This document shows, piece by piece, positions 1 through 55,339 of a DNA stretch of 55,339 nt (within the stretch, counting starts at the first letter, position 1; each line of letters opens with the position of its first letter). Origin of the DNA: a virus (taxonomy: Duplodnaviria; Caudoviricetes). The notes under the pieces are model-generated. The model searched no databases and was not told the origin of the DNA. It saw only the letters and a program-made list of their open reading frames with translations. The DNA lies in the IMG/VR virus record IMGVR_UViG_3300024261_000039, positions 1 through 55,339 of that record; one strand, written 5' to 3'. A program made the translations under genes and the position numbers.

Positions 1-1
1 G

Positions 2-1036
2 CAGATTTCTGAGTTAACTGCTAGTATTAATACTCAGCAGGGTCTATATGATCAAGGTGTCATTGACCTAGAGACCGCAAACAATAACATCTCTAATTTA
101 GATTCTGAGATCAAGTACCTTGAGGGTAAGTTGTACATTTACTCTGATGACCCCTACTCTACCGACCCTATACAGGATGCTATAAAAGACGGAACTTATT
201 TACCTATCGAAGATATAAACGATATGGGTGAGTACGTCGGCAGTGACCCGAAGTTTTTAAGCAATGATTTAAGTACGGTCTATAACGTAGAGGGTTTTAA
301 CCCAAGTGGTCTGAACTCAGACGGGAAATCTCAAGAGGATTTAGATGCCGTATCGGTTGCTAAGAAGTTAGCAACCCAAAACGATGAGTTATCGGCTGAA
401 CTAACTAATGTGAAAACTGGGAATTATTACGGTAGTGCTGGTTTTAACATACTTGGGTACGATATTAGGGGGTATGATAGGGATCACCTAGACACAGCTG
501 GTAACTACGATCCAGAGGCTAGAACTGATGTAGATGAACTGGTGTCTTCCGATAAGTTAGGAGAGATTGCCCCAATAACCAAAGGTCTCCCAGCGATCAA
601 CACAGGTGAGAATGAGTCCACAGGCGATGGGTTCTTCTATAACCGAGGAACTGGAGTTCACAATGATCAGTTCTGGGTTGGTGGTTCGCACATTGCAAGT
701 GATGTAAACACCCCAGATTACAACCCATCAGTCTCTGGTTTTAATTTTAACGAGGATGCGCCTGAGATGATTGCCAACACTACCTCTCCACGGTACAACG
801 CTGACCCATACGCCACGCTTGGCACGAACACAGATGCTTTCAAAGTTGATAAAATAAGTAGATACCAGCCTACTAAAACAGCGACTACTCCAACGGCAAC
901 GAGTAACTTTTCAGGCACAACATTTAATGCTGGTAATAGTGCTGGTCGTTATAACATTGACGCAACAAAAGCCGCAACTGCTGGAGTAAAAGCTGAACAA
1001 CGAAACGGACAGTTTGACTTTGACGAAGCTATCTAG
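2..1036 (+). CDS. C-terminal part of the giant acidic virion/ejection protein that begins at 50579
   Basis: Frame open from nt 2 (QISELTASINTQ...). It shares the repeats DPY.TDPIQDAI..GTY.P.EDI...GEY.GSDP.F and YN..GFNPSGLNS.GKSQEDL with the 50579 ORF. Confidence 0.85.
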   Translation, partial: QISELTASINTQQGLYDQGVIDLETANNNISNLDSEIKYLEGKLYIYSDDPYSTDPIQDAIKDGTYLPIEDINDMGEYVGSDPKFLSNDLSTVYNVEGFNPSGLNSDGKSQEDLDAVSVAKKLATQNDELSAELTNVKTGNYYGSAGFNILGYDIRGYDRDHLDTAGNYDPEARTDVDELVSSDKLGEIAPITKGLPAINTGENESTGDGFFYNRGTGVHNDQFWVGGSHIASDVNTPDYNPSVSGFNFNEDAPEMIANTTSPRYNADPYATLGTNTDAFKVDKISRYQPTKTATTPTATSNFSGTTFNAGNSAGRYNIDATKAATAGVKAEQRNGQFDFDEAI

Positions 1037-1451
1037 ACCAGCAACCTTAAAAGACTTATCAGCCATAGTAACCCTAGCACTAACCGAGGCTGAGAAGTTT
1101 CCTGTCAGACCAGACAAGAAGAAGATTAAGCAGTTAGTTACGGAGTCAATCTCCACGAAGTCAAACTTCTGTTGGGTCTCTGAGGAAGAGGGTAAGGTGA
1201 CAGGTGCTTTGGTGGCTATCTCCCATCAAGGTCTTTGGTTTGAGCGAAAACATTTATCAATTTTATTATTAACCACCACGACAAAAGGCGCGGGAATCTC
1301 GATGCTGAGAGAGATGCTTGCGTGGGTGAAATCAAGTGGGGCGATTAAGGTAGTCACGACTGACTTCATTGTCCCTCCACGCATGGCAGTTTTATTAACA
1401 CGACTTGGGCTAAGTCCCACAACCACACATACATTTTTTAAAGGACAGTAA
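1014..1451 (+). CDS. GNAT-fold acetyltransferase-like virion assembly protein
   Basis: RPATLKDL start, WVSEEEGKVTGAL beta strands and a KGAGISML motif-A-like segment; position among internal virion genes as for T7 gp13/P22 gp14-type genes. Confidence 0.65.
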   Translation: MTLTKLSRPATLKDLSAIVTLALTEAEKFPVRPDKKKIKQLVTESISTKSNFCWVSEEEGKVTGALVAISHQGLWFERKHLSILLLTTTTKGAGISMLREMLAWVKSSGAIKVVTTDFIVPPRMAVLLTRLGLSPTTTHTFFKGQ

Positions 1452-1453: not shown

Positions 1454-2440
1454 ATGGGATTTTTCGGCAAGTTATGGAAAGGGGTTAAGAACATCTTTTC
1501 TGGGATCGGCAACTTTGTAAAGTCTGCCGTCAGCGGCAAGAACTGGTGGAAGACTGCCATCGTTGGGGCAACAGCCTATTTTGGTGGCGCGGCTCTGGGG
1601 TATTGGAAGTCTCCAGTAGTCTCCAGCATCAACGGTGCTTGGGCTGGAGACATACAGGACGGTGGTGGCCGTAAGGGTGGTTGGTTTGGTGAGATGTTTG
1701 GGGCTAACAGAAATGACACTAGGGCAGAGACTTTTGGTTTGGGTGAGGATGAACCCCCAATGGCAGAAGAGTGGTTGGGAGGGTCTGGGGCCACAGCACC
1801 TTCCCCATCAATAGGCAACCCTAGTGGGGGGCTGATGGAGTATAACGCAGACAACTACAGAGACATAAACGGTAATTATGATGATATGCCTCCAGTTCCG
1901 AGGGGATCGTCTGCTTTCGCTGGGCAGATAGGTGATCGGGTCAATGACCCTGCATCTGGTGGAGCTAAGACCTTTGCACTAGGTGAAAGAAAACCTCTTC
2001 TTGGGGCAGAGAAAACGCCACTGGTCAACCTAGCCACTGGTGCGCCACCGCCCCCAAACCAAAGTTCAGAAGGTCTCTTATCTTCCGCATGGGAAACCAC
2101 GAAAGGGGCCGCTGGGGCCGTGTCTGATTGGACGGCAAAACACGACAGAGTAGCGGCAGTTGGGCTGTCGGCATTAGGTGGCGCGTTTGAAGATAAGCAA
2201 CAAGATGCTTACGAGACCGCACAAGGAACTTTACAGGCAAATCAAGACATGAACAAGATTGGGGGAGTTCCTAAAGGAAGTCGCTTTGGCGCAAAGGCCA
2301 CAGCATCCGCGAGACAAACAAAACCTTCCTCCGAGGCTGAGATGGAGAAGTTGCGGCAGAGTATGACACCACAACAATGGGCTGAGTACGTGAAGCAAAT
2401 GGAACTGGAAGGACAAAAGACTCCTTCAAGAGTAGTTTAA
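1454..2440 (+). CDS. Putative internal virion/ejection protein
   Basis: Amphipathic Gly-rich N-terminus (MGFFGKLWKGVKNIF...AIVGATAYFGGAALG), low-complexity body, RBS AAGGA, module context. Confidence 0.55.
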   Translation: MGFFGKLWKGVKNIFSGIGNFVKSAVSGKNWWKTAIVGATAYFGGAALGYWKSPVVSSINGAWAGDIQDGGGRKGGWFGEMFGANRNDTRAETFGLGEDEPPMAEEWLGGSGATAPSPSIGNPSGGLMEYNADNYRDINGNYDDMPPVPRGSSAFAGQIGDRVNDPASGGAKTFALGERKPLLGAEKTPLVNLATGAPPPPNQSSEGLLSSAWETTKGAAGAVSDWTAKHDRVAAVGLSALGGAFEDKQQDAYETAQGTLQANQDMNKIGGVPKGSRFGAKATASARQTKPSSEAEMEKLRQSMTPQQWAEYVKQMELEGQKTPSRVV

Positions 2441-2453
2441 CAAGGAGACTAAG

Positions 2454-3032
2454 ATGCCAGAAGTAAATGGAAAGCAATTCCCGTATGACAAGCAAGGACT
2501 TATCGCGGCAGAACAAGAACGTCAGGGATCACCTCAACCTCCTCAACAAGGGGGTGGCGGGTTAGAGCAGTATGTTGAGTTAGCCAAGCAGTTACTCCAG
2601 ACCCCAGAGGTCTCTCAAAGTCTGTTGAAACTGGGGGGTAACAACTCAGACTCTGTTGAGGGTATGGCGGATATGATTAGCATGACTGTCATTAAGGTTG
2701 ATGAGAAGACAGGGGATGCTATCCCAGAAGAGATGATCTTACCACTCACAGAACAAGTAGTCATTATTATTGAGGGTATGATTGCTCAAGCATCTGGCAA
2801 ACCTATCCCTGAGAAAGCGGTCATCAAAGCAAGTCAAATGGCGGTGGCAAAGTTGATGGAACATTACGGTGTTAGTGAAGAGCATATTGCTAATGCACTT
2901 CAAGGTGAAGACCCTGAGAAAGTACGTGCTGTCAAAGACGAGACTGAGAAATCCATGGCCTCAAAACCTCAAGGTCAACCACCTCAAGGTCAACCACCTC
3001 AAGGTCAACCACCTCAAGGAGTTCGGAGATGA
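2454..3032 (+). CDS. Hypothetical virion-module protein with C-terminal (PQGQP)n repeat
   Basis: RBS AAGGAG; 15-nt tandem repeat cctcaaggtcaacca near 2967-3019. Confidence 0.7.
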   Translation: MPEVNGKQFPYDKQGLIAAEQERQGSPQPPQQGGGGLEQYVELAKQLLQTPEVSQSLLKLGGNNSDSVEGMADMISMTVIKVDEKTGDAIPEEMILPLTEQVVIIIEGMIAQASGKPIPEKAVIKASQMAVAKLMEHYGVSEEHIANALQGEDPEKVRAVKDETEKSMASKPQGQPPQGQPPQGQPPQGVRR

Positions 3033-3697
3033 GTTGGCGAGGCGCGGTAAAAGCAGGGACAGATACTGCGGTAGACATCCTCAAAGAGGATGCGAAGGCT
3101 ACCCGTGCCGCAGAGTTGTACCAAACCAAGCGTCAGAACTCTATGACAGACGCTATGGAAACCTTCAAGCAGAAGGCAAAGTTTACAGCAGATGCCGCAA
3201 CGGGAGTACTTGACTCTAACTACGGGTACAAAAACCTCAAGGAGTTCGACACTCAGATAAACGCTCAGGCTAAGGCGGCCATAGGTCAGGCGGCTGTGGG
3301 GGGATATGGCAAGATAAAAGATAAAGATGTGGCAAAGAATGCGTGGGATAAGTCTGCCCATGCGGCAGAACTGTCTAAGGTCTACAAGGCGGCTTACTCC
3401 AACGGTATGAAGAATCTTACCCTACCTACGCTTAGTAATAAGATGCTTGAGGAGGTGAGGACTAATTATGAACGTAAGATGAAGAATAAATGGGTGACGG
3501 ATATTCTGAAGGAGTACAAAGACCCAACCCTAGAAGGTCTGCGGGGCAACATTCCTATGGAGTGGGTAAGCGGCAAGATTGCCTTACAGCAAAGGATAGA
3601 CGGTATTATCTCAGGCACTGCAACCCTTGGGCAGAAGCAAGCGCAGATTCGCAATATAAAAGACCGCTGGGAATCTGGTACAAAAACAAGCTGGTAA
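3029..3697 (+). CDS. Hypothetical, probable internal virion protein
   Basis: ATGA overlap with the upstream gene; helical Ala/Lys-rich sequence. Confidence 0.65.
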   Translation: MSWRGAVKAGTDTAVDILKEDAKATRAAELYQTKRQNSMTDAMETFKQKAKFTADAATGVLDSNYGYKNLKEFDTQINAQAKAAIGQAAVGGYGKIKDKDVAKNAWDKSAHAAELSKVYKAAYSNGMKNLTLPTLSNKMLEEVRTNYERKMKNKWVTDILKEYKDPTLEGLRGNIPMEWVSGKIALQQRIDGIISGTATLGQKQAQIRNIKDRWESGTKTSW

Positions 3698-34386: not shown

Positions 34387-34410
34387 TTTTAACTACCTGT
34401 GCGTGATAAT

Positions 34411-34941
34411 ATGTCAGTTACTTCTCCAAAGAGACTAACCCTAGCCGATGTTTTAGTACTCCCCATCCAGTGGGACGTTGACTTATCAGAATTTGTCTGG
34501 TCTAGGGATGTAGCCAGACGGTGTAAAAGGGGGGATGTGGTTGGTGGTATTTGCACAAAGACGGGTTATCGAAGAATGAAGTACCAAGGTAAATACTACT
34601 ATATCCATAGATTAGCCTACGTGTGGCACACAGGGCAGACCTTGACTCAGTGTATTGACCATATAAACGGTGACCGTAGTGATAACAGACGAGAGAATTT
34701 ACGTCAGGTAACCCACAGGGTCAATAACCAGAATAAGAGAAGGTACACAAACAACACCACGGGCGTCACAGGGGTAAGGATGATGTCCACGGGGAGGTTC
34801 AACTCCTTCATCTGGAAGAATGGAAGAAGATTACACATAGGATGCCACGACACTTTAGTGGAGGCGTCCAGAGCAAGGCGCGGGGCAGAGATAGACTTGG
34901 GTTACCACGCTAATCATGGAAATGTGATGATTCCTACATAA
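34411..34941 (+). CDS. HNH endonuclease with AP2-like C-terminal domain
   Basis: HRLAYV...IDHINGDRSDNRRENLR...N..N, TGVTGV, HIGCHDT...A..AR...NHG. Confidence 0.93.
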   Translation: MSVTSPKRLTLADVLVLPIQWDVDLSEFVWSRDVARRCKRGDVVGGICTKTGYRRMKYQGKYYYIHRLAYVWHTGQTLTQCIDHINGDRSDNRRENLRQVTHRVNNQNKRRYTNNTTGVTGVRMMSTGRFNSFIWKNGRRLHIGCHDTLVEASRARRGAEIDLGYHANHGNVMIPT

Positions 34942-40236: not shown

Positions 40237-40896
40237 ATGAATTATCTCACCCTATGTGACACACTCATCAAGGAGGCTGGGCTTGCGGAAGAGGGAATAC
40301 TCTCCGTAACTGGTCAAAAAGGCATTAAGAAAAAGGTAGTGGCATGGGTATCAAACGCATGGGTTGAGATACAAAATAAGCGAGATTGGAACTTCCTCTG
40401 GAGTGAGTCTAGTTTCGCAACTATTGTCGATAAACAATCCTATCACCCTGTTGATGACTTAGCACTAGACCCTGTGCTGAGAAGGTGGAGTCCCTACTCC
40501 TTAATTCACTCCACCCCGACAGGGGATAATAAGTTTTATTTGAAGTATGTCCTCTGGGAGAATTTTGACAATACATTGTCCAGTTCTGGGACACCCACAC
40601 AATTCACAATTCGACCTGACAACAGCATTAAATTTAATAGTGTTCCTGACGTAATTGGGAAAGTGAGTTTCGAGTATACCCGAACCCCACAGGTGTTGAC
40701 TTTAGGTACTGACATTCCAATTTTACCAATTGCACACACGGAAGTAATTTTATATCAAGCCATGTTGTACCTTGCCGCAGAGCAAGATGCTCCAGAATTA
40801 TACCAAGACGCAAGTAGGCAGTTGGCTACGCGGATGGCAGATTTAGCCGCTGAGTCTATGCCAAATCCTTCAGTTGCTAATGTTCCTCTAGCATGA
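40237..40896 (+). CDS. Head-tail adaptor / tail tubular protein A-like
   Basis: MNYLTLC...NAW.EIQ...WNFL...GTP..F...L....DIPILP..H.VI.Y.A; position in the module. Confidence 0.75.
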   Translation: MNYLTLCDTLIKEAGLAEEGILSVTGQKGIKKKVVAWVSNAWVEIQNKRDWNFLWSESSFATIVDKQSYHPVDDLALDPVLRRWSPYSLIHSTPTGDNKFYLKYVLWENFDNTLSSSGTPTQFTIRPDNSIKFNSVPDVIGKVSFEYTRTPQVLTLGTDIPILPIAHTEVILYQAMLYLAAEQDAPELYQDASRQLATRMADLAAESMPNPSVANVPLA

Positions 40897-42365
40897 CCGT
40901 TCGTACTGAGACTTGGGCGTTAAAGGGAGGTTTGGATTTAGAATCTCCCGCGATGTCCATCCCTGCTGGCAGGGCTATCGTTGCTCAGAATTATGAAGCG
41001 GCAATGTCTGGTGGTTACAGGCGCATGGATGGGTACGAACTTTTCGATGGGTCAGCGACACCCTCCGTTGTCTCTGGGTCAGGGGATATTCTGGGTGTTT
41101 GGGAGTATGGTGGGGATGTTTACGCTTTCAGAAACAATACACTAGGAACTGCTTGTGTTATGCACAGGTCAACCTCAACTGGGTGGGTTGTTGTACCCAC
41201 TGGTCTTTTCCCTGTTCCTTCTGGTAAATTTGAATTTGTAAACCACAACTTTGCGGGGTCTTCTTCTACGGAGAAGATGTATGGGGTTGATGGGAAGAAT
41301 AACTGCTTTGAGTGGAATGGTACAGTATTCGCCAACATTTCCACGGGGATGACTACGGACACCCCCACTCATATAGGTGTTCATAAAAATCATTTATTTC
41401 TATCTTTTGAGGGTGGATCAATTCAACATTCTGGTGTTGGCGCACCCGCGTCTTGGACTCTAAATACTGGGGCTGGGGAGATAGGTATTGGTACTGAGAT
41501 TACCAACATTGACTCTATGCGAGGAAATGCCTTAGTCATAACTGGTTCTGACAGAATTAACATCCTGTACGGCACATCTTCTGCGGATTGGGACTTAAAA
41601 TCCTTCTCAACAGAGTTGGGAGTTGTTGCAAACACAACAGAGATTATTGACGCTGGGTTAGTGTGGTTCAACGGTAGAAATGTTACCCACATGAGTACAA
41701 CGCAATCATTTGGTGATTTTAATACCGCCTCTCTTTCCACTCGAGTCACTAAACTATTAAGTGTCCGACTCGATAAAGTTGTCGGGTCATCCGTTAATTA
41801 TAAGAAAAACCAATACCGATTATTTTTCAATGATAAGACAGTTGCCGTTGCGACAATCGTAAACAATAAGTTGTTGGGTTGGACTTCGTGGTTAATTCCT
41901 CATGTTCCGACTGCGGTGTCATCAGGATACATGGGTTGTACTGATGGTTCTGTCATGGCTCTGGACACGGGTACGTCTTTCAATGGTGCGACCATAGACT
42001 CATTTCTCCGTTTGGTGTTTAACTCATTTAAAACACCGCACAGACAGAAGCGATTTAGAAAACTACTTCTTGAAATGGAAGTTGGTAGTCAAGCGACTAT
42101 GCAAATGGTAGCTGATTATGGGTATGGTGTTGAGACCTCCTCGATTTCAGATCCTCTGACGGTTGCTGGTTCTGGGGGGTATTGGGATACCGTAGATTGG
42201 GCAGACTTCAACTGGTCTGCCACGATTGTCTCGCAGATGGAGGCTGTGCTTAATGGCTCTGGGAGAAATATGTCTGCTCTTATTTACCATACAAGTTCTA
42301 GTGATCCTTCCTTCACCGTTCAAGGAATTTCAGTTAATTATTCCATAAGGGGTTTAATTCGATGA
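40893..42365 (+). CDS. Tail nozzle / DNA stabilization protein (P22 gp10 / tubular protein B-like)
   Basis: Beta-rich 490 aa; GGLDL...N......GYRR.DG, HKNHLF, QYRLFF, KRFRK. Confidence 0.75.
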   Translation: MTVRTETWALKGGLDLESPAMSIPAGRAIVAQNYEAAMSGGYRRMDGYELFDGSATPSVVSGSGDILGVWEYGGDVYAFRNNTLGTACVMHRSTSTGWVVVPTGLFPVPSGKFEFVNHNFAGSSSTEKMYGVDGKNNCFEWNGTVFANISTGMTTDTPTHIGVHKNHLFLSFEGGSIQHSGVGAPASWTLNTGAGEIGIGTEITNIDSMRGNALVITGSDRINILYGTSSADWDLKSFSTELGVVANTTEIIDAGLVWFNGRNVTHMSTTQSFGDFNTASLSTRVTKLLSVRLDKVVGSSVNYKKNQYRLFFNDKTVAVATIVNNKLLGWTSWLIPHVPTAVSSGYMGCTDGSVMALDTGTSFNGATIDSFLRLVFNSFKTPHRQKRFRKLLLEMEVGSQATMQMVADYGYGVETSSISDPLTVAGSGGYWDTVDWADFNWSATIVSQMEAVLNGSGRNMSALIYHTSSSDPSFTVQGISVNYSIRGLIR

Positions 42366-45300
42366 GTAATTTTTATACCAAACCAACAGACCTCGTATCG
42401 GGTACTACGGCTAGGGCAAGTGATATAAATGACCGTGTAGATTCTGTTGAGTCTGGGTTTGATAGCGCGGAGTTAGTGACCATACGGTCAATAAAACTCC
42501 CTGTTGGAACGACAGCAGATCAGCTTATCACTGAGTCATCGGCTAATAGAGCAAGTAAAACTATTGGGTTCGATACATCTGGTGACTTGGTTCTTTACTC
42601 ACCGTATAACTGGCAGGGCGATTGGACAACTACCACTGAGTATGCTCTCCACGACACTGTTCGGGATGCCTCCACCAAGAATTTATATTTCTGTATGGTG
42701 GTTCACACCTCTGGTACTTTTGCCACAGACTTAGCGGCAAGTAAGTGGTCATTGGCAATCAATGTAGCTGATGTTGAGACTGCAAAAACTGCGGCAGAAA
42801 CTGCTCAAACAGCGGCAGAACTTGCAGAGACAAACGCAGAAACTGCTCAAACAGCGGCAGAACTTGCAGAGACAAACGCAGAAACTGCTCAAACAGCGGC
42901 AGAACTTGCAGAGACAAACGCCTCAACTTCTGCGTCAACAGCCACTACCCAAGCAACCACAGCCACTACCCAAGCAACAAACGCGGCAACTAGCGCAACT
43001 GCGGCATCGACTTCAGCAACAAATGCGGCAACTAGCGCAACTGCGGCATCGACTTCAGCAACAAATGCGGCAACTTCTGCGTCAACAGCAACTACCCAAG
43101 CAACAAATGCGGCAACTTCTGCGTCAACAGCAACTACCCAAGCAACAAATGCGGCAACTTCAGAGACAAACGCGGCAACTTCAGAGACAAACGCGGCAAC
43201 TTCAGCAACCACAGCTACTACCCAAGCAACAAACGCGGCAACTTCAGCAACCACAGCTACTACCCAAGCAACAAACGCCTCAACTAGCGCAACAAACGCC
43301 TCAACTAGCGCAACAAACGCCTCAACTTCAGAGACAAACGCCTCAACTGCAAAGACAGCGGCAGAAACCGCTCAAACAGCGGCAGAAACCGCAGAGACAA
43401 ATGCGGCAACTAGCGCAACTGCGGCATCGACTTCAGCAACTAACTCAGCAACTAGCGCAACTGCGTCATTAACTGCTCAAACAGCGGCAGAACTTGCAGA
43501 GACAAACGCAGAAACCGCAGAAACAAATGCGGCAACTTCAGCAACCAATGCCAACACAGCTAAATTAGCGGCAGAGGCGGCTCAGACTGCGGCAGAATTA
43601 GCGTCAGATACTTTTGAGGATACTTATCTAGGTGCTAAAGCCTCTAATCCAACTGTTGATAATGACGGTGACGCATTAACCACAGGCGATCTGTATTTCA
43701 ACACCACATCTGATGAGATGAGGGTGTACAACGGTACATCTTGGCAGACTGCCGCAGTATCTACTGCTTCCATGTTAGCACTGACAGGTGGTGCAATGAC
43801 GGGAGCGATAACAACTTCTTCCACGTTTGATGGTCGTGATGTTTCCGTAGATGGGACGAAGTTAGACGGTATAGAGACAAGCGCAACGGCAGACCAGACA
43901 GCAAGTGAAATAAAAACTGCTTATGAATCAAACGCAGATACTAATGAATTTAGCGATACAGAGCAAACTAAGTTAGCAGGCATAGCAACAAACGCAAATA
44001 ATTATTCACTTCCGTCATCGGTTGTCCATGACACTGAAAAAGGAGCATTACACGCAACAGACGCATTAAGAATTTCAGGTCACAGTGTACAATTACACAA
44101 AGGAGATGGTTCTTATGAATCCGTAACTGTACCTGATAATAACACCACTTACTCAAACGCCACTACAAGTTCTAGTGGGTTAATGTCCAATACGGATAAG
44201 AGTAAATTAGATGGTGTAGCAACAAACGCAAATAATTATTCACTGCCGTCATCGGTTGTTCACGACACTGAGAAAGGTGCATTACACGCAACAGACGCAT
44301 TAAGAATTTCTGGGCATACTGTACAGTTATATAAAGGGGATGGTAGTTCAGAATCAGTAACCGTACCTGATAATAACACCACTTACTCAAATGCCACTAC
44401 AAGTTCTAGTGGGCTAATGTCCAATACGGATAAGAGTAAGTTAGATGGTGTAGCAACAAGTGCAAACAACTACACCCACCCCGCTAATAATCATCTACCT
44501 TCAGGTGGTACTGTCGGACAAGTCCTGACGAATGTTTCTTCTGGTAACGGTAGTTGGGCAGACGCATCTGGTGGAGGGGGTATACTTTCTGGTATTGCCG
44601 CTGGTGGCATAACTGCGGGTGATCCAGTAGTTGTTAATGGTGCATCTCCGCAAGGCATCCACCCAGCGGGTACAGTTTCTTCAGCAATACCAACGGTATA
44701 CGCTAGGGATATGATGAGCGTTTTGGATCAGAATATAGACCCCAATTATATGCAATCCCACTACGTCACGTTATGCCCTCAAATAGACGCAGTAACCAAC
44801 CTACCTAATACCGTATTAATAGCCCACGCGGCTAGTAGTTATGGGATTGGTACTAGGTTTGTCGCGCGGGAGGGTGCAACCACTGGCACAGCGCAGGCGG
44901 GTGTTACTTACTCAACTAATGCTATGCTTATTGGGGATATGAAGTTCGTAAATACCAGCAAGTTTCCCAGTGATATTTCCTATTTCTTTTTCGTATATGG
45001 TGACTCTGGTAATAGCAACAAGCTGACGTTGAATTGGGGGAAAGTACAGGAGGTGTCAGGGTCAGGGACTGCTGACGCTATTTCGTTTGGGCAGACACCC
45101 GTTGTCGTAGATTCTACTTCGTTAGGTAATGAGACACGATTCGCTAGACTAATCCCCATGGCAGAACACGAACAGTCAAACGGACAGCCGCTAGTTCAAG
45201 TAGTAATTGCTTATTCGGTCAGTGGTCAAGCAAGATTTGTTAAAGCTGGTTTTTCCCTGTCAAACTACAACGAAATAAGCACCAGTACACAACCCACTAT

Positions 45301-47977
45301 ATCTACCTACTCCACAGGAAGTCATACTTTATACTCCCCCTACTATGGAGACAACTGGAATAGTATGACCTCTGTTGAGGGGGATGCCAGCAAGTTTATA
45401 GTAGGGTATACGGACAGCAGTTATGTATCGCGAGTTGTTTGCGGTTACTTAGGCGCGTCAGGCTCACCTGACCCACAGTCTTCGGTTATAACTATGGGAA
45501 CTCCTACCTTAGTCCAAGACCCAGCACCTTACTCAGGTAGTGCGTACCAATCAATCGCCCCGTCCATATCCAAGTGGCGGAGCGACCCTAATAAATTTCA
45601 CATGGGGTATGGGTCACCGTATCTACATTCTAACGGTAGCACTTACTGGGGTGGTATTAACATAGCTACACTAACTCTGACAGGGGTTTCAACACTAACA
45701 ATTTCTAATATAACTGACCTGTACGTGACACAAGGGACGGCTATTTCCTCTACCTACTCTATAGCAACTTTACCGTTTGATGATGATCGTCTTTTGATAG
45801 AGTACACAACTTCCGCTCACCAATCTTCTGGGTATATATTTCTCTCTCTGAGTGCGGGTGTATACACTGGTGAAACTCCCTATGTTATATCTACAGGATA
45901 CCCCGGTGCTAGATCAAACAATGCCAACGCCCCCCACGTTTTTTTAAAATCCCCAAACCACAGGATCGCTCAAGTGTGGGTTCGGGCAAACAATAGCACA
46001 CACTTCAGACTTCACGGAATGGACGTTGACCATCAACCTCTATCGGATGCTGGGGTCGTTGGTGTAGCGGCAGATACCAAGCTGAATGGGGAAGAGGTAG
46101 ACGTAGTTACTACCTCTGGCGTGGCTAGTGGATTAACTGGATTGGTTGCGGGATCAGATTACTACACCACTTTATCTGGAGTATTGTCAACGTCACCAGA
46201 CCCAGACAAAGAAATGTACACGGGTGTTGCTATGACTGCTACAGATTTGGCAGTCAGGGTTAACGCACCCCTACCAACCACCAATATGGTTAAAGATGTT
46301 GACTCGTCTTCGCTCCCTGTCTTGGGAGGCTCACCGTTATTTATTAACTCTAGCGGTACAGTGTCGGCAGTCGGGCTAACTACGAACACAACTACAAACA
46401 TTACTCAGGACGAGTATGTAGATAATGCGGCTTCAGTCTATAGTGATACGTATGCTCACGGAGCATCGTCTGTTGATGGTACATTTGCTGTGACTGTTAG
46501 TCTTGATAGTACCAACAATTTAATGTTGTATCTTTGGGAAATAGCTGGGGATAACCTCGTATCTCAAGGTTCTGTGGTGTTGGACTCCACTCCAACTACT
46601 AATCAGGTATTCCCAAGTCCAGCTATTTATGAAGATGACCCTACCAACACCTCCATCCAGAAGACCGTTTTAGTTTTGTGGGGTGGGTCTGGGGTTAGCT
46701 ATAAAATGTATGGTATGGCTCTTCGGATAGATACGAGTACCTATACGGTGGATGTTACAGGTGCAAAGACCTACCTAGATGGGGGGAGTTGGCATCGCGG
46801 GGCTTCAAACCTTGAGTTTGCTCCCACTACTGGCTTATTTGTATCCCAGAGTATTAGATACTCTGGTAGTTATCAAGACGCCCATTTAGTATGTGAGGTG
46901 AGTAATCACCAAACACTAGCTTTAACTAAGTTAAGTGTTACAAACTCTCCTGAACCAAGTGTCGATAGTTGGTGGTATACCCACACTCTAAAGTTCCTTC
47001 CTAACGACCCTACTAGATACATAGCATCGTGGAAAGAAATGACGCAAGGGGGTCATGTCCCATCAGTATTCCAACCCACAGCAGTTTGCACAGTAAACCA
47101 CACAACTGGAGTGGTTACTTTCGGGACTCTCTTGCCTATATCTGAGGGGAATACTATCCCACCTCTATCCCCATATAGCCAAACCTTCTTTGAGCATTAT
47201 GCTAAACATCCTCAAATCTCTTTCATCACGGACACTAAGTTCGTTATGACGTACACAGCAACCACAAGTTCTGGAACTCTCTATGGTCAGGTAACAGTTG
47301 TTGTAGGAGAGGTCAGCGGTACGTCTTGGACTTCACTTTCTAGGAAGGTGGTTAATTATATGGATGGTTCAAATACTAGTGTGTACGGCAATAACGCTCA
47401 AAATACTGAACACATGATTAACCCTAACCCTACAACTGACAAAGAACTCCTTGTGTCTTTCTATACCTCCAGTGGTACGTGCTACCACGCTAGACGGGTG
47501 ACTATAGACTCATCAAATAACATTACAACTTACACTGATAATAACGTGGACACCTATAGCGTAGGGGTTGGCGATTGGCACTCTCACGCTGGGTGGAAAA
47601 TGAAAGATACCTATGTAAGTTCTTCCGAGTTAAATTACTGGAGTAGCAAACGCTATGTAAATTCCAGTACGAGCAGATTGGTTTTTCAACAGTATAATCC
47701 TAGTAGTGGGGATTACAAATGGAAATCCTTTCTTTGGGGTGAGCAGACAACTAATCTGACCGCATCCACACCTATAGTTGGTACAGCACTCAAACCTCCA
47801 GTTTCTGGTAGGGTGGAGATACTGACTTCTGGCTCTGAAGACAAGAATCAATCTGGGCTAACTACGGGGTCACTGGTTTACCCAACTGCTACTGGGAGCG
47901 TTTCACACAACAACCCACTTAGTGTTTCATCTTTAGGTCTAGCTACTTCATCAACTTCAATTTTATTAAAAGGTTAA
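42362..47977 (+). CDS. Tail fibre / receptor-binding protein
   Basis: Ala/Thr coiled-coil repeats, YLGAKASNPTVDNDGDAL..GDLYFN, GLMS..DKSKLDGV repeats, beta-rich distal region. Confidence 0.88.
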   Translation: MSNFYTKPTDLVSGTTARASDINDRVDSVESGFDSAELVTIRSIKLPVGTTADQLITESSANRASKTIGFDTSGDLVLYSPYNWQGDWTTTTEYALHDTVRDASTKNLYFCMVVHTSGTFATDLAASKWSLAINVADVETAKTAAETAQTAAELAETNAETAQTAAELAETNAETAQTAAELAETNASTSASTATTQATTATTQATNAATSATAASTSATNAATSATAASTSATNAATSASTATTQATNAATSASTATTQATNAATSETNAATSETNAATSATTATTQATNAATSATTATTQATNASTSATNASTSATNASTSETNASTAKTAAETAQTAAETAETNAATSATAASTSATNSATSATASLTAQTAAELAETNAETAETNAATSATNANTAKLAAEAAQTAAELASDTFEDTYLGAKASNPTVDNDGDALTTGDLYFNTTSDEMRVYNGTSWQTAAVSTASMLALTGGAMTGAITTSSTFDGRDVSVDGTKLDGIETSATADQTASEIKTAYESNADTNEFSDTEQTKLAGIATNANNYSLPSSVVHDTEKGALHATDALRISGHSVQLHKGDGSYESVTVPDNNTTYSNATTSSSGLMSNTDKSKLDGVATNANNYSLPSSVVHDTEKGALHATDALRISGHTVQLYKGDGSSESVTVPDNNTTYSNATTSSSGLMSNTDKSKLDGVATSANNYTHPANNHLPSGGTVGQVLTNVSSGNGSWADASGGGGILSGIAAGGITAGDPVVVNGASPQGIHPAGTVSSAIPTVYARDMMSVLDQNIDPNYMQSHYVTLCPQIDAVTNLPNTVLIAHAASSYGIGTRFVAREGATTGTAQAGVTYSTNAMLIGDMKFVNTSKFPSDISYFFFVYGDSGNSNKLTLNWGKVQEVSGSGTADAISFGQTPVVVDSTSLGNETRFARLIPMAEHEQSNGQPLVQVVIAYSVSGQARFVKAGFSLSNYNEISTSTQPTISTYSTGSHTLYSPYYGDNWNSMTSVEGDASKFIVGYTDSSYVSRVVCGYLGASGSPDPQSSVITMGTPTLVQDPAPYSGSAYQSIAPSISKWRSDPNKFHMGYGSPYLHSNGSTYWGGINIATLTLTGVSTLTISNITDLYVTQGTAISSTYSIATLPFDDDRLLIEYTTSAHQSSGYIFLSLSAGVYTGETPYVISTGYPGARSNNANAPHVFLKSPNHRIAQVWVRANNSTHFRLHGMDVDHQPLSDAGVVGVAADTKLNGEEVDVVTTSGVASGLTGLVAGSDYYTTLSGVLSTSPDPDKEMYTGVAMTATDLAVRVNAPLPTTNMVKDVDSSSLPVLGGSPLFINSSGTVSAVGLTTNTTTNITQDEYVDNAASVYSDTYAHGASSVDGTFAVTVSLDSTNNLMLYLWEIAGDNLVSQGSVVLDSTPTTNQVFPSPAIYEDDPTNTSIQKTVLVLWGGSGVSYKMYGMALRIDTSTYTVDVTGAKTYLDGGSWHRGASNLEFAPTTGLFVSQSIRYSGSYQDAHLVCEVSNHQTLALTKLSVTNSPEPSVDSWWYTHTLKFLPNDPTRYIASWKEMTQGGHVPSVFQPTAVCTVNHTTGVVTFGTLLPISEGNTIPPLSPYSQTFFEHYAKHPQISFITDTKFVMTYTATTSSGTLYGQVTVVVGEVSGTSWTSLSRKVVNYMDGSNTSVYGNNAQNTEHMINPNPTTDKELLVSFYTSSGTCYHARRVTIDSSNNITTYTDNNVDTYSVGVGDWHSHAGWKMKDTYVSSSELNYWSSKRYVNSSTSRLVFQQYNPSSGDYKWKSFLWGEQTTNLTASTPIVGTALKPPVSGRVEILTSGSEDKNQSGLTTGSLVYPTATGSVSHNNPLSVSSLGLATSSTSILLKG
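42775..43600 (+). repeat. Ala/Thr/Ser heptad repeats (21/42-nt units) in the tail fibre
   Basis: Repeated AETAQTAAELAETN and ATSATTATTQATNA units. Confidence 0.9.
43985..44452 (+). repeat. Tandem 234-nt (78-aa) duplication in the tail fibre
   Basis: Units start at 43985 and 44219, with a third partial unit at 44453; near-identical protein with synonymous changes. Confidence 0.92.
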
Positions 47978-49377: not shown

Positions 49378-49588
49378 TTTACTACTGTGCTTGGTTTTTT
49401 TAACGGGGTGTTCTGTCACACAATCTATTGCAGGGAAGGCCGCGAATTTCGCAGTTAGTTCTTATTGCAAAATCCCAAGTGGCACTCTTGGGAGAAAAGG
49501 AATTAGAAAGACTTTTAATGAGGCCACAGCCCCTAACACAGTTTTGATTGAATGTTCCTCAGACAAGGAGACCCAAGGTGGCAACTAG
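49364..49588 (+). CDS. Small lipoprotein
   Basis: MKSVSLLLCLVFLTG-C lipobox; RBS GGAGG. Confidence 0.75.
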   Translation: MKSVSLLLCLVFLTGCSVTQSIAGKAANFAVSSYCKIPSGTLGRKGIRKTFNEATAPNTVLIECSSDKETQGGN

Positions 49589-50561
49589 TACACAGTTAGA
49601 TTACGGGGTCGGCAACAACACTGGCGGCCTGATGAATTATACCCAACCAACAGAGATTAAACCGCTCCCAGCACTTGGGACGTTGCAAACGTCTGGCACA
49701 CAGGCGGCTACAGTTCAAGGTCAGATGGACAACCTGCTGAAGAACGACAGCCCTTTAATGCAGAGAGCAACTACCAGAGCATCCCAAGCGGCAAATAAGC
49801 GGGGGTTATTGAATTCAAGTATGGCAGTCCAATCTGGTCAAGAGGCGGCTTTATCTGCCGCGTTACCCATTGCACAAGCAGACGCGAAGGCATATCAGGC
49901 ACAGGGTCTTGCTAACCAAAATGCCATGAACACGTTTGGTACTGCGACACAGGCCCAAGATTACAAGACTGCCTCAGCAGACCAAGCCTACTCACAGCAA
50001 ATGGGAACGGGCAACTATGCTAACTTAGCTGATGGGGCCACAGCACCAGCCGACCACCTTGGTGGCGGGGGTATTTTACAAACCCAAGCAGATATAGCCA
50101 ATACTGCACGGGATCAGATTTATGAGCAAACTGTAGGTACTGGTGACTACGCATCTCAGGTAGTTGATTCGACAGGTGCGGTCACACAAGCCGCTGGGAA
50201 TATTGGCGGTGGCGGTACAATCACAGCCAAGAACGATGCGTTACTAACTACTCAGGATGACGCGCAACTTCATGACACTGCGATGAAAGGGTTAGATGAA
50301 AATATGCGTGGGAACTTACTGTCCCTTGAGTCAAACTTCAACTCATTAGCACAGACTTCACGATCTGCCTCCACTATCTATTCCTCGTTTCTGACATCTT
50401 TGGTCGCAATACAACAGGATGCCTCTTTAGGCGAAACTGCGAAAACGGAATTGATTGACCAAGTTTGGGGAAAAGCAGAAGACTCCATTGAGGTTCTCAT
50501 GGCATTTGACTCTGCGGCTCTGGGAGTACAACAGCAAGTTTCTGATCTACAACCTGTATAA
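49578..50561 (+). CDS. Internal virion/ejection protein
   Basis: TVQGQM..LL..DSPLMQ.A...ANKRGLLNSSMA...ALPIAQADA; GTG start after AAGGAG is inferred. Confidence 0.65.
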   Translation: MATSTQLDYGVGNNTGGLMNYTQPTEIKPLPALGTLQTSGTQAATVQGQMDNLLKNDSPLMQRATTRASQAANKRGLLNSSMAVQSGQEAALSAALPIAQADAKAYQAQGLANQNAMNTFGTATQAQDYKTASADQAYSQQMGTGNYANLADGATAPADHLGGGGILQTQADIANTARDQIYEQTVGTGDYASQVVDSTGAVTQAAGNIGGGGTITAKNDALLTTQDDAQLHDTAMKGLDENMRGNLLSLESNFNSLAQTSRSASTIYSSFLTSLVAIQQDASLGETAKTELIDQVWGKAEDSIEVLMAFDSAALGVQQQVSDLQPV

Positions 50562-50578
50562 GTTATAAGGGATAGCGT

Positions 50579-53500
50579 ATGTCAATCTGGGATTGGGATT
50601 TGGATTTATCATTCGGATATTCAAGTGATGCCGATACTAACTCTGACACTTCTGATTGGAATTTCACCACCCTCACTGATTCTATTTATGAGGGTGCAAG
50701 TGACATTTACGATTATGTAACACCGTGGGAAAGTTCATACGATAGTCCAGAGTACGTTTATGACCCTTATACCACAGACCCTATACAAGATGCTATAGAC
50801 TCTGGGACATACATTCCTCCAGAAGATATATCCGCAGAGGGTGAATACATAGGTAGTGACCCTGTATTTATGGGTGAGGGGTACACACCGCCAGCGAAAT
50901 TCACGACAGGCATTGAAGGGATGGGGTATACCTTCCCAGAAGAGTACACCCCAGAACACCTAGCGGAGACTAATACCCTATGGAATTTCGACCCTCATGG
51001 GGATGATGTCACTGACTATCTTCTGCTAGATAAGATAAATACTTGGCAAGATGAGGGTAAGACTGCTAAAGAGATACTAGAGATTGCGAATGAGTATTGG
51101 ATTGAGGATGCTCGAATAGCTGATTTGTATGGTATTGAGACGTCTGAACTGGAGTCTTTTATGGACTCCAATGCCAGATTTTGGGAAAACGTAGACAAGG
51201 ATACAGGTCAGGCATTTCTTGGTAGTCAGGGAAATGTAACTTTTTTGAATGGAGTCTTTAAATTAAATTGGGATGACTCACTGTTTACTGGTGTTGATAC
51301 AGATGGAACAGTATATGTAGATGGTAAGTACAGCAACCAAGACAACAACCTCCTATCTGATAGGTGGTATGACATTTCTCAGAAGTTTGCAGGGGTGGAC
51401 ATACTAGCCTCTACTGCTGGGATTATCTACGATTCTGTTAACACCAATCAAAATGTTAATTTTGAATCTCTAGGGGATATTGTAGAGGATAACGATCTTC
51501 TGCGTAGTGTGTTAAACACTTTGCTTACAGCCGAGGCTGGCGTTGGAGTGGCTTTGGATGTAGCATCTATAGGTCTCTCTGGCGAGAAGGTCGCTGGTCA
51601 TTTAGCCGATATAATCTATAATGGTGATGACAATGTTAGAGCCAAGATAGCCGACCACTTAGACAACCTGACTTTGGGTGAGTTTTCAGAAGGTCTTATT
51701 AAGATAATTGATGCTGTGTCTGGAGTTCCATCCATGTCCTTGGCTTTAGATGCCAGTAAGACTGTCTCCAGTATGACTTATTATTGGATAACAGGGGCGC
51801 AGGATGAGGATGAGGGAGGACTTCCAAAGAATCCATTTACGTTTGTTCCTACCACTGTACTAAGCATTGAAGAGTCTAAGCATTTCTCTGAGTCAAATTT
51901 TGGGTTGTTACAGGAAGATGGTAGCACCCGCCCTTTTACACCTATACCAGATGAGCCTCCTATATCTGCTGAGTATGTTCCCGCAGAACCAGTTTATCCC
52001 GACCAACCCGCTATACCCTCTATACCACCTGTCCCAGTTGCGGATAAAACATTTGATGACCTACTCGTTGATTTTGAGTCTGCCCTTGCCGAAAAGGGCT
52101 TAACCGCTACAGACCCTACTGGAACTGCCATAGCGTTCGATAAGGATATTTTGAAAAACATATCCTTATATCAAGGAGCGCAAGCGACATATAAAGGTAA
52201 TGTTTATGATATGGGTATGGGTCAGAACCGTGTTAACGGCAATGTTGTATCTAACTATGTCTCTTCGTATCGTACTGCCGCTGACCCAGACACTTACCAT
52301 AAAACTATACTGAATGTTGGTAAGGTTGCTGGGGAAGTCTTTGGTCAATACTGGAAAGATTTAACAGGTATGGAATTAATGGTCAGTAAGGAAACCACAC
52401 CTGACTATTTTAGCTCTTCAATTTATTCTAACAACAATTATTACTTCACAGATAGTGCTAGGGATGGGTTGTTTGAAAAGTGGGAAGGGTACATAGGTGC
52501 TGGGGTTAATGGGTACACCCACGGCATGACCATGAATTGGGACGCGATTAATGCTGAACAGCAAACTTGGGACTATAATGGATACCCTGCCAGTATAGAT
52601 ACAAAAACTACCGAGTCCGAAGCTGAGTTTACCCAGTTGACAAAGGCGTTTGACGATGCTTTAGAGTATGAAAATAACTACCCTAGCTTGGTGGCGGAGC
52701 ATTCGGTTGCTGTTACTAATATAGACCTTGACTATGATGCATCCATACTTGAGGGAATTGACAATTGGCACTCAGACTCTCTGTACAGGGATTATACAAC
52801 TGAGGTAAGTGTGGCAAATGACCTCAACTCCAATGATATTGGGGTGTCAGAGTCAGCTATACCAGACTACACAACCAATGAGGAAGGTAGATTTGTCCTA
52901 GTACCGCCAATAGAAGGTGAGTCCCAGCCGCCCAACACGCTGATGGCAGTTCATAAAGGGGCTGATGGTAAATATTCTTACTCTTATGAGCCAGACACAC
53001 TTACCTCCCCAGATAGTAAGTGGGAAAGTTCTGACTTCCCTATGCTATCTACGATGGTGGGTGCGGATGTAACTCAGGTTGTTGTGGATGTGGCAAACAA
53101 TATTGCCCATTTAGTAAACTCAGCGGGGGAATTAGCAGGGACACTATTGACCCGTGATATGGGTCAATATTTCAAAGGGTTAGACCAGTATGTGTACCCC
53201 TCAGATATGAATAAAATAGACCCATCCTCTGACTCTATCCTAATGGTTAATTTGGAAGGTGGCGAAGCTACCGCTGATCTAGATCGGTGGAATGTTATTA
53301 TTGATCAGTTGAGTCTTGGGGAGTCAGTTATAGTAACCCCTAAAAGTATAGCGTCTTCCACAGTAGATGCAGAAAATAACGCGGCAACCACAGCCAAGAA
53401 TAACGCTAATGAGATAGTACAGGGTAAGGCACAAGATCGACTGGACGAGGCTATAGCCAAGAGAGAAGAGGATGTAGAGGCTGAGAAAGCCGAATATGAT

Positions 53501-55339
53501 AGGGTTGTAAAATCTGTTGATGAAACAAACGCGAGTAACACAGCGACATATAATAGCCGAAAAGCCGAGGTTGATAGTGCAAACGCGAGTAACACAGCGA
53601 CATACAACGCTGGTAAAGTCGCGGTTGACGCACATAACACTCAACAACAAACAAATCACAATAATAACAAACTCAATTACGATTATTGGTGGCGTGAGTA
53701 CGGCAGTAAATCTGAATATAGCCATATATCCCCGCCACTGCCCATTTCAACCTCTCCCTATCAAAGTTACCCAGCCGCACCTACCACAATAGCGTACCCA
53801 GCCGCACCTACCACAATAGCGTACTCACAAGAAATATTAGACAGGACAGATTCGGATGGCAACTTCAAAACTTCCGTTCCTAACGTCACTACTAACCTGT
53901 CTGCGTACACCTCTGGGGATGAGAAAACAGCGGAGTATATAGCCCAGCACTCTATAGAGATTGATGTAGAAGTGGGCAAAATTTTAGAGAACTCCTCCAG
54001 TGCTGTGTCACCTGATGCGGCTGACTTAGTATCGTCTGAGGCAACTATAAAATTCTTAGAGACTCAACTATCCCATGTGAATAGTGGTGCAACTATCGAA
54101 CAGTCGAAGTCCGAGATAGCTACGCTTGAGAAAGAGTTGAGTTATTTGAAGGGCGGGGAATTATATAAGCATGAGGACATTACCTATACCAAAACCCTAT
54201 TTGACGAAGATTTAAACTCGACCAAAACTACCGAGACTCTGCCAGCTAACCTTTATACTAAAGACGAACTTACAGCTAAGATAGCTGAGATCAACAACAG
54301 TCTTGGCGAGATGGGGTTTACAGACTTAATGAGGAAACTCCAAGACTCCAGAGTAACATCTACTGAGGCTGGGTTTGCACTCGATGGTAAGAATGTCTTT
54401 AATCGGACGGTTGAAGAAGAGAAAACCTACCAAGCTGACAAGTTAGTACAACAACGAGACCAATTTTTCGCTGGGCTAAAAAAAGACGAAGAAATAACCT
54501 CTCTATCTAGAGAGGTAGATTGGCTAGAAGATGACTTAGCTACGTTACCATCGTGGATGGACGGTACTTCATACAGACCAGACCCCTCTAAGCCTGTAAT
54601 CAGTAAATTTCGCATACAAGAAGAAGATAGACTGAGGGAATCTTTGTTAGACCCCGCCCTTACTGCGGAGGAAAGGAAAGCCCTAGAAGATCAGCTAGCT
54701 TGGGTGCAGACTACTACAATAGATAGTAATAGTGATGGGGTTATAGATGCTAGGGATGCACTAGCCATACTGCACTCAATATCCCCTTCATATAGTAGTA
54801 GTCTAACTCCTGAAGAGAGAGCGGAAGTATACAAAGAACTTCTCCGTACACGCGATTTTAACTATGATGGTAGGATTACCATTAACGATGCCCTTACAGC
54901 ACTCAGGCACTCTGCTGGACTAGAGCCTTTAGTATCTGACGATCAGTTATACAACATTAGGGGAGAAAATAAGGCGGGACTCCCACCATTGGCTGGGTCT
55001 CTAGCTGATACTTTATTAAAGAAGAATGAGGAACTAGCCAGTTTACAGGCTACGGTCGAGGCTGGGTTGTCTTCCGATGAAGACCTAGAAAAGATCAAGT
55101 CTCTTACTGCTTCAGTAGAGTACCTTGAGGGTAAGACCTTCAGGAATCCAGACGGTTCTATTCCTGACGCTACTGCTGAAGGTTATGACGCTAGTAAGAC
55201 CTATAACATACATGGCTTTAACCCAAGTGGTCTGAACTCAGAAGGCAAATCTCAAGAAGATTTAAATAAAGAGTCAGCAGACACACAATCAGGGATAATA
55301 AGTAGTGCAGTTTCAACTGCTACTGACCCACTAGACAAG
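50579..55339 (+). CDS. Giant acidic virion/ejection protein with dockerin-like repeat (open at window end; missing from ORF track)
   Basis: ATG at 50579 after TAAGGGA; I found no in-frame stop in 1587 codons (MSIWDWDLDLSFG...TDPLDK); shares repeats with 2-1036. Confidence 0.88.
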   Translation, partial: MSIWDWDLDLSFGYSSDADTNSDTSDWNFTTLTDSIYEGASDIYDYVTPWESSYDSPEYVYDPYTTDPIQDAIDSGTYIPPEDISAEGEYIGSDPVFMGEGYTPPAKFTTGIEGMGYTFPEEYTPEHLAETNTLWNFDPHGDDVTDYLLLDKINTWQDEGKTAKEILEIANEYWIEDARIADLYGIETSELESFMDSNARFWENVDKDTGQAFLGSQGNVTFLNGVFKLNWDDSLFTGVDTDGTVYVDGKYSNQDNNLLSDRWYDISQKFAGVDILASTAGIIYDSVNTNQNVNFESLGDIVEDNDLLRSVLNTLLTAEAGVGVALDVASIGLSGEKVAGHLADIIYNGDDNVRAKIADHLDNLTLGEFSEGLIKIIDAVSGVPSMSLALDASKTVSSMTYYWITGAQDEDEGGLPKNPFTFVPTTVLSIEESKHFSESNFGLLQEDGSTRPFTPIPDEPPISAEYVPAEPVYPDQPAIPSIPPVPVADKTFDDLLVDFESALAEKGLTATDPTGTAIAFDKDILKNISLYQGAQATYKGNVYDMGMGQNRVNGNVVSNYVSSYRTAADPDTYHKTILNVGKVAGEVFGQYWKDLTGMELMVSKETTPDYFSSSIYSNNNYYFTDSARDGLFEKWEGYIGAGVNGYTHGMTMNWDAINAEQQTWDYNGYPASIDTKTTESEAEFTQLTKAFDDALEYENNYPSLVAEHSVAVTNIDLDYDASILEGIDNWHSDSLYRDYTTEVSVANDLNSNDIGVSESAIPDYTTNEEGRFVLVPPIEGESQPPNTLMAVHKGADGKYSYSYEPDTLTSPDSKWESSDFPMLSTMVGADVTQVVVDVANNIAHLVNSAGELAGTLLTRDMGQYFKGLDQYVYPSDMNKIDPSSDSILMVNLEGGEATADLDRWNVIIDQLSLGESVIVTPKSIASSTVDAENNAATTAKNNANEIVQGKAQDRLDEAIAKREEDVEAEKAEYDRVVKSVDETNASNTATYNSRKAEVDSANASNTATYNAGKVAVDAHNTQQQTNHNNNKLNYDYWWREYGSKSEYSHISPPLPISTSPYQSYPAAPTTIAYPAAPTTIAYSQEILDRTDSDGNFKTSVPNVTTNLSAYTSGDEKTAEYIAQHSIEIDVEVGKILENSSSAVSPDAADLVSSEATIKFLETQLSHVNSGATIEQSKSEIATLEKELSYLKGGELYKHEDITYTKTLFDEDLNSTKTTETLPANLYTKDELTAKIAEINNSLGEMGFTDLMRKLQDSRVTSTEAGFALDGKNVFNRTVEEEKTYQADKLVQQRDQFFAGLKKDEEITSLSREVDWLEDDLATLPSWMDGTSYRPDPSKPVISKFRIQEEDRLRESLLDPALTAEERKALEDQLAWVQTTTIDSNSDGVIDARDALAILHSISPSYSSSLTPEERAEVYKELLRTRDFNYDGRITINDALTALRHSAGLEPLVSDDQLYNIRGENKAGLPPLAGSLADTLLKKNEELASLQATVEAGLSSDEDLEKIKSLTASVEYLEGKTFRNPDGSIPDATAEGYDASKTYNIHGFNPSGLNSEGKSQEDLNKESADTQSGIISSAVSTATDPLDK

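Follow-up and report, generated by a model that had tools for sequence, protein, structure and literature searches.

What lies across the ends of IMG/VR record IMGVR_UViG_3300024261_000039, where one long open frame runs off the last base and another enters at the first? The window analyzed here is the whole stretch of 55,339 nucleotides (nt), which is also the whole assembly, a single contig. A first-pass annotation had joined the frame from ATG 50579 to the frame that ends at a stop at 1036, on the supposition that the first and last G are the same base, and had read from them one acidic protein of 1931 amino acids (aa), encoded on a closed circle. We find that the two frames at the contig ends are parts of a single real gene, here called the giant gene, and that the hidden open reading frame (ORF) is an artefact of where the record was cut. 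Its parts are as follows.

50579..55339, plus strand: 5′ part of the giant gene, codons 1-1587, without a stop, running off the 3′ end of the contig
2..1036, plus strand: 3′ part of the giant gene, open at its 5′ end, 344 codons (1588-1931), with TAG at 1034-1036; P0002 (below) matches the join
1..1, plus strand: duplicate G, a one-base end overlap of the linearized assembly, the same base as 55339

Both frames were recovered as annotated, with no in-frame stop found in the 1587 codons of the first and a TAG after the 344 codons of the second. The contig ends overlap by one base (G) only. A plain end-to-start join breaks the frame, with a stop 3 codons past the junction; a join with one shared G gives a 1931-aa frame, its junction reading ...TDPLDKQISELTASINTQQ.... 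In unitigs of two public seawater sequencing runs (X1 and X6), 55339 is followed by CAGATTTCT, the letters of window 2-10, which shows the first and last G to be a single base. At the stop-triplet frequency of the window, the probability of meeting no stop in 1931 codons is ~1.7e-46, and a codon-usage model built from eight confident structural genes gives log-odds of +0.29 in the giant-gene frame versus −0.20 to −1.18 in the other five; together these exclude a chance open frame. An AAGGGA resembling a ribosome-binding site (50567-50572) lies 6 nt ahead of ATG 50579, which itself stands 17 nt beyond the stop of the upstream p337 gene. The three ORFs listed within 50579..55339, two on the minus strand (111 and 133 aa) and one on the plus (91 aa), are shadow ORFs, as had been supposed.

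The joined protein is present in databases. Among 5.8 billion proteins searched there was one cluster with three members. P0002 (1931 aa; two contigs, up to 55,464 nt) matches the join letter for letter, P0001 (1931 aa; one contig of 55,380 nt) differs from it by two substitutions, and P0003 (2042 aa; a contig of 55,823 nt) consists of the join plus one extra 111-aa unit; the giant gene is uninterrupted in the contigs of all three. At least part of it occurs in 20 of the 21 listed seawater metagenome runs, from 19 studies. Neither the gene nor the protein had a match among 50,697 phage records (megablast, tblastn). Viral contigs, a set from which near-identical records may be missing, gave none to the 1587-aa part, to an exact 30-mer of the window end, or to alignment A2, and alignment A4 returned from them only two contigs already found (as L006 and L007). 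No match was obtained for P0003 in metagenome contigs, or for the C-terminal alignment in a prophage search of 185,579 species genomes.

The extra unit of P0003 bears on the length of the gene. The contig very probably breaks within a tandem array that assembly collapsed to one copy, with the following elements.

55119..55339, plus strand: first 221 nt of the tandem unit, opening with a 17-nt direct repeat, AGTACCTTGAGGGTAAG (55119-55135); from unitig depth and joints
55134-55339, plus strand: multi-copy core, the last 206 nt; from core versus flank depth
2..130, plus strand: rest of the unit, the long linker QISELTAS...NLDSEIKYLEGK, closing with the second 17-nt repeat (114-130); from P0003 and a repeat search

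Across the join the unit measures 333 nt (111 aa), and the contig break falls inside it. The 17-nt repeat that brackets it is exact, with two matches in the window versus none expected. In P0003 the copies of the unit, TFRNPDGS...TDPLDKQISELT...EIKYLEG, are identical at 110 of 111 residues, YLEGK becoming YLEGE. Array depth was read from the Logan unitigs of four of the 21 listed runs, each from a different study, of which X1 may be the source sample; runs with small word shares (X15-X21) form no part of this evidence.

X1: core (55134-55339) depth 61.2; flank 16.2
X4: core (55134-55339) depth 35.5; flank 13-17.5
X6: core (55134-55339) depth 15.5-21.9; flank 3.3-4.5
X7: core (55134-55339) depth 12.7; flank 4.85

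The core is deeper than its flanks in all four runs, roughly two to five times. In X1 and X6, a 28-letter linker takes the sequence from 55339 back to 55119; in X6 this joint is a 279-nt unitig that overlaps itself. Loose ends carrying the same linker ahead of 55119 occur in X1, X4, and X7. The linker consists of window 2-10 and a further 19 letters, which match window 95-113 at 18 of 19 positions; this short linker is therefore the long linker shortened by 84 nt, and the corresponding unit measures 249 nt (83 aa). In X1, the unique unitig (depth 16.2) stops at 55163 and the core unitig begins at 55134, as would be expected if the k-mers branched at a variant base, placed from these unitig ends at 55133 (K or E). 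The X1 unitig that runs from linker into core has a depth of 43.8, of which the short-linker joint accounts for 19.9.

We propose that the array would consist of a 68-aa core joined by one of two linkers, a long one of 43 aa (period 333 nt) or a short one of 15 aa (period 249 nt), and that natural genomes would hold about two to five cores. Judged by depth, X1 may average ~3.7 cores per genome, that is, roughly one short-linker and two long-linker extra units, corresponding to a protein of ~2200 aa and a genome of ~56.2 kb. The collapsed-array reading stays below certainty because metagenome k-mer depths may mix genotypes and three of the four database contigs carry one unit. The excess core depth, the return linker, and the extra unit of P0003 make 1931 aa a floor; the true protein is probably longer, and repeat number is visibly polymorphic in nature. 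The closed circle of the first-pass annotation holds insofar as the assembly graph closes on itself and the stop-free one-base join is seen in public-run unitigs. As a clean circle encoding exactly 1931 aa it gives way, since the ends lie in the collapsed array, P0003 is longer, and the linker route from 55339 to 55119 is seen as well. The record would then under-report the gene twice, by splitting it at linearization and by shortening it through repeat collapse. Its one-base duplication frameshifts any naive circularization, and gene callers will miss a gene that occupies 10% of the genome.

Just upstream of the array, at 54800-54975, X4 and X7 carry a second haplotype with seven linked substitutions within ~105 nt (54830-54935). 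Both haplotypes are present in X4, at depths of 11.1 and 6.44.

What kind of protein does the gene encode? In its one-unit form it has a mass of 211.6 kDa, an isoelectric point (pI) of 4.18, no cysteine, 17.0% D+E, 6.9% K+R, and a net charge of −195, which bears out its description as very acidic; the pI values of other structural proteins (portal, 4.54; fibre, 4.69; p337, 4.44) make it only somewhat more extreme. The first 100 residues include 24 D/E and no K/R, and the sequence reads as helical and Gly/Ala-rich around aa 141-400, with coiled-coil stretches from ~aa 930. Four features were delimited outside the array.

50999..51718, plus strand: N-terminal conserved domain (~aa 141-380), helix-rich, with Gly/Ala-rich, weakly hydrophobic segments, common to P0004, P0007, and the L005 protein (below)
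53768..53824, plus strand: exact 27-nt tandem repeat, 2.1 copies (YPAAPTTIA twice), from a repeat scan
54716..54895, plus strand: dockerin/EF-hand-like calcium-loop pair (aa 1380-1439), below Pfam thresholds
443..1033, plus strand: conserved C-terminal domain (~aa 1735-1931), opening with G[FY][ND]xx pentads, 61-90% identical to four relatives

The calcium-loop pair shows two DxNxDGxI...DA..L loops with dockerin-like spacing, as in dockerin type I and EF-hand pairs; it differs from these in scoring below threshold and in making up 60 of 1931 residues. Dockerin_1 (PF00404) reached 21.4 bits against a cut-off of 22.9 (E 3e-4; aa 1382-1439), and 21.1 bits on P0002, and EF-hand_7 (PF13499) reached 19.8 bits against a cut-off of 30. 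Hippocalcin matched the giant protein among PDB sequences at E 0.32, and the 18 window proteins scanned against Pfam included no match to the cohesin family. Apart from these two sub-threshold Pfam matches no family was recognized, in agreement with the first-pass annotation: PHROG profiles, those of tails and fibres included, gave no match to either half. No LPD or enzymatic Pfam domain was found, and the giant therefore does not qualify as a large polyvalent protein. PDB sequence searches gave E 0.17 or worse for the giant protein and nothing below E 0.1 for the C-terminal profile and four neighbour proteins. The ESM Atlas returned no usable match for the whole protein, and aa 130-420 scored ≤0.85, which is chance level.

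Relatives were found separately for the two ends of the protein. An exhaustive phmmer search with aa 1-1200 against 1.84 billion representatives returned only P0004 (1108 aa; E 3e-18; 29-35% identity over ~aa 141-380). C-terminal searches returned P0005 and P0006, both short fragments (72-84% identity), along with P0007 (1628 aa; 62%), which is encoded on contig L004 at 1106-5992; contig L005 encodes a 1701-aa member at 9986-15091. The C-terminal domain (~200 aa, ending ...GQF.FDEAI) is 61-90% identical among five sequences, with 91 invariant columns, and is not in P0004; the family alignments have two to five rows. PHROG profiles gave no match for P0007 and, for the L005 protein, one weak match to a family of unknown function. 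The middle regions bear no sequence relation to one another, each having its own repeats. P0007 carries the acidic heptad IPDPDID in ~10 exact copies just before the C-terminal domain, the same place as the 83/111-aa array of the window. In the L005 protein, GFNEA/GFNLK pentads recur dozens of times in a very long array; it also has heptad (VGGKVDA)n and TPDP runs, and its matches to Pfam Decapeptide and Pentapeptide_4 fall below threshold. The dockerin-like pair had no convincing alignment in P0007, the L005 protein, or P0004. These five relatives have in common with the window protein the N- and C-terminal domains, acidity, lack of cysteine, arrays, and, on L004 and L005, the neighbourhood; the window member differs in its middle region. 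On sequence evidence, they form a very small, new, unannotated family of giant acidic cysteine-free proteins.

The neighbourhood of the giant gene is a tightly packed block in the order p337, giant, GNAT, three small genes, and a 2823-aa polyvalent protein.

49548..50561, plus strand: p337, 337 aa, no cysteine; homologue of the 519-aa protein of phage vB_Pun_Y3 that precedes an acetyltransferase
1014..1451, plus strand: GNAT-type acetyltransferase (PHROG, E 5.6e-8), its start overlapping the end of the giant gene
1454..3697, plus strand: three small genes of 328, 192, and 222 aa, no cysteine, their order kept in L004 and L005
3725..12196, plus strand: polyvalent protein, 2823 aa, no cysteine, with ParB-C (phrog_2579), LPD38, lysozyme, and a C-terminal LysM

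L004 and L005 have the order p333/400, acidic giant, 143-aa acetyltransferase (with an overlapping TTG start), 328/336, 240/191, 210/230, and polyvalent giant; the polyvalent giant of L005 includes an ART-PolyVal domain. Both IMG/VR contigs with the C-terminal domain keep this order, and its agreement with the order around the junction of the window corroborates the wrap. P0004 is encoded on contig L003. On one side of it lies a >3332-aa protein that weakly matches PHROG "virion structural protein" families (E 3e-6 and 3e-5); on the other is a 216-aa gene, with a T4-type lysozyme next. Pseudoalteromonas phage vB_Pun_Y3 (L001, 19497-34412), whose portal is 38.7% identical to that of the window, has a block of a p337-like gene, an acetyltransferase, three small genes, and a 3421-aa polyvalent protein, without a giant gene, and the giant gene would thus be a lineage-specific addition; vB_Pun_Y3 offers a natural comparator for its absence. 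The 519-aa protein of that phage matches p337 (E 2e-7), with the acetyltransferase directly next (E 7e-10). We had considered this 519-aa protein as a short homologue of the giant and rejected it, its best E being 0.72. The p337 protein, earlier labelled an ejection protein, had no PHROG or Pfam family match. Promoter and terminator scans gave counts within shuffle expectation, with no intergenic terminator-like site listed in the block.

The block is also set apart by composition. The p337, giant, p328, p192, p222, and polyvalent proteins together have no cysteine in 5833 residues, versus 97 in the 9958 residues (0.97%) of the 29 other ORFs; the chance of no cysteine is P ~1.6e-25 for the block and, for the giant gene taken singly, 6e-9. 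Cysteines number six in the tail fibre, four in the portal, three in the nozzle, and one in the GNAT acetyltransferase. The pattern recurs in L003, L004, and L005. The shared lack may be a sign of a common fate of the block proteins, and unfolded passage to an oxidizing periplasm would fit. Literature searches on ejection and polyvalent proteins brought up no statement tying cysteine lack to ejection, and "cysteine" had 0 occurrences in an ejection-protein review; the lack across the block may offer an easily searched signature of ejected proteins.

From gene order, operon packing, and composition we consider it reasonably probable that the giant protein is virion-borne. That it is internal to the particle and ejected is a more tentative proposal, to which we give greater weight than to an external fibre. 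The block lies where podovirus ejection genes lie, in the late operon 3′ of the tail genes, co-oriented and tightly packed (17-nt gap; GNAT start overlap). Ejection-protein genes are described as small operons that diverge fast and are matched by size and synteny, their products partly unfolding to exit (PMC8954989). T7 gp14/gp15/gp16 and P22 gp7/gp20/gp16 are likewise large, quickly diverging proteins, their genes clustered in a small late operon after the tail genes (PMC8954989). The giant differs from these in being much larger and far more acidic, in its polymorphic array, and in its absence from vB_Pun_Y3, and PHROGs and PDB gave no sequence match between it and T7 gp14-16, P22 gp7/16/20, or the N4 ejection proteins. 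Reported parallels are the ejected giant polymerase of N4 (PMC13434306) and the polyvalent proteins (PMC5512222). The podovirus phi24B has a 2811-aa LPD38 polyvalent protein, gp47, which is reported to be found in virions by proteomics and is proposed to be an ejection protein (10.64898/2026.04.10.717836). The 2823-aa polyvalent protein of the window resembles gp47 in kind and is likely an ejection protein. The giant shares the block and the lack of cysteine with it; unlike large polyvalent proteins, it is rich in repeats and coiled coils rather than a string of catalytic modules.

We picture the giant as a modular, coiled-coil, repeat-rich, highly acidic, and cysteine-free protein whose helical N-terminal domain and C-terminal domain are conserved. 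It would be packaged in the virion along with the other block products and would leave through the tail at infection, co-ejected with DNA as an ejection or internal virion protein. Lack of cysteine would suit unfolded passage into the oxidizing periplasm, and the variable array could serve as an expendable spacer. The combined explanation, of one late gene with a collapsed array that encodes an ejected or internal virion protein, is the one we lean towards, though only mildly. Across many seawater metagenomes the lineage occurs, and the position of the giant gene in a polyvalent (ejection-type) block is conserved; if virion-borne, the protein widens the range of proteins known to be packaged by podoviruses.

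Several observations weigh against this combined explanation. The closest cultured relative by portal, vB_Pun_Y3, lacks the giant, which would make it dispensable for the basic ejection machinery. By our own reasoning, a net charge of −195 looks unfavourable for packing beside DNA, a problem that an external location would avoid. PHROGs and PDB sequences gave no similarity to ejection, tail, or head families. The AlphaFold models are unusable, with a mean predicted local distance difference test score (pLDDT) of 30.3 for aa 1-1000 (two-row alignment) and 44.1 for aa 1588-1931 (three-row alignment); helices alone reach ~60-75. As to the array, unitig depth averages strains, and non-integer copy numbers (2.7, 1.2) may reflect mixed genotypes; the two- to fivefold depth could in principle stem from another phage that shares the core; and the single-unit form of 1931 aa is found in three of four database contigs.

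The charge argument leads to an external appendage, a long calcium-binding, fibre-like adhesin that is anchored by its C-terminal domain, owes its reach to the array, and is not ejected. The gene lies downstream of the 1871-aa tail fibre and a DUF1353 chaperone-like gene, and coiled coils, with helices as the only better-modelled parts, the dockerin/EF-hand-like pair, and polymorphic copy number would all suit such a protein, as would an acidity that, in our view, is more to be expected of an exposed marine protein than of one in an interior packed with DNA. We nevertheless hold an appendage to be unlikely: the true fibre matches 15 PHROG families and the giant no tail or fibre family; fibre, nozzle, and portal all hold cysteine, whereas the giant is cysteine-free like the polyvalent block; and the conserved end is C-terminal, whereas in fibres it is usually the virion-attaching N-terminus.

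A clean circle with a one-base overlap and a protein of exactly 1931 aa, the extra depth and loops coming from co-occurring genotypes, fares somewhat worse, and we regard it as quite unlikely. It would account for the 1931-aa P0001 and P0002 on three other contigs and for depth ratios that are non-integer and vary between runs. It sits poorly with excess depth and linker junctions re-entering the unit in all four runs, and with an X1 core unitig that has 3.8 times the depth of the 6.5-kb flank when both show no differences from the window. The break, moreover, falls within a 333-nt unit that covers 0.6% of the genome, and short-read assemblies commonly collapse tandem repeats of 249-333 nt.

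An anti-defence or host-takeover factor, in the form of a giant acidic, DNA-mimic-like decoy injected with DNA or made after infection, is more improbable still. Its appeal lies in the net charge, in the acidic IPDPDID array of P0007 and the long (GFNEA)n array of the L005 protein, in the accessory insertion relative to vB_Pun_Y3, and in the adjoining polyvalent conflict-type proteins, including the ART-PolyVal domain in L005; phage P1 offers an analogy in its Dar proteins, which are packaged and injected with DNA. Known DNA mimics are small, however, and no similarity to such families appeared in the PHROG, Pfam, and PDB searches; the late-operon position argues against an early, post-infection role. 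That the frame is a chance one or an assembly chimera is next to impossible: the lack of a known family and the low-confidence models could be cited for it, and against it stand the improbability of so long a stop-free frame, the frame-specific codon usage, and the conservation of position and of the N- and C-terminal domains in independent contigs.

Returning to the ejected or internal virion protein, its most far-reaching version is a long shot. Here a marine podovirus lineage would package, and inject with its DNA, a hyper-acidic cysteine-free protein of ~2000 aa whose array varies from one to ~5 units between co-occurring genotypes, relatives having other arrays, as a tunable, expendable module: a DNA-mimicking decoy that counters host defences, or a length-adjustable part of the trans-envelope conduit. 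If true, a packaged, array-tunable protein of this kind would represent a new class among ejected phage proteins, one subject to diversifying selection.

The rest of the window is laid out as follows, with late-gene families assigned from PHROG and Pfam.

32603-33916, plus strand: terminase
34399-34941, plus strand: HNH endonuclease (phrog_99, E 4e-48), between terminase and portal, flanked by two small ORFs without family
35512-37701, plus strand: SU10-type portal
between the portal and major capsid genes, plus strand: scaffold-position gene, from late-gene order
38903-39886, plus strand: major capsid protein
40237-42365, plus strand: adaptor-like and nozzle-position genes
42362-47977, plus strand: tail fibre, 1871 aa
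between tail fibre and p337, plus strand: DUF1353 protein, chaperone-like
12418-13611, minus strand: tyrosine integrase (E 3.6e-56)
19708-20346, minus strand: repressor-type regulator

The PHROG matches of the tail fibre are confined to aa ~130-740, its C-terminal ~1100 aa being without family. A terminase split by the HNH gene was considered and rejected: the 142-aa ORF after the HNH gene is unlike terminase, and the 437-aa terminase already reaches the C-terminal motif. No tRNA was found in the window, which has a GC content of 45.7%. The other arm encodes the integrase, repressor, helicases, a primase-helicase, a DNA polymerase, and MazG. This is a complete phage genome and, from the integrase and repressor-type regulator, probably a temperate one. 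The best explanation of its affinities is a marine short-tailed phage distantly related to the HMO-2011 type, its portal being ~30% identical to those of HMO-2011 and Roseobacter CRP phages.

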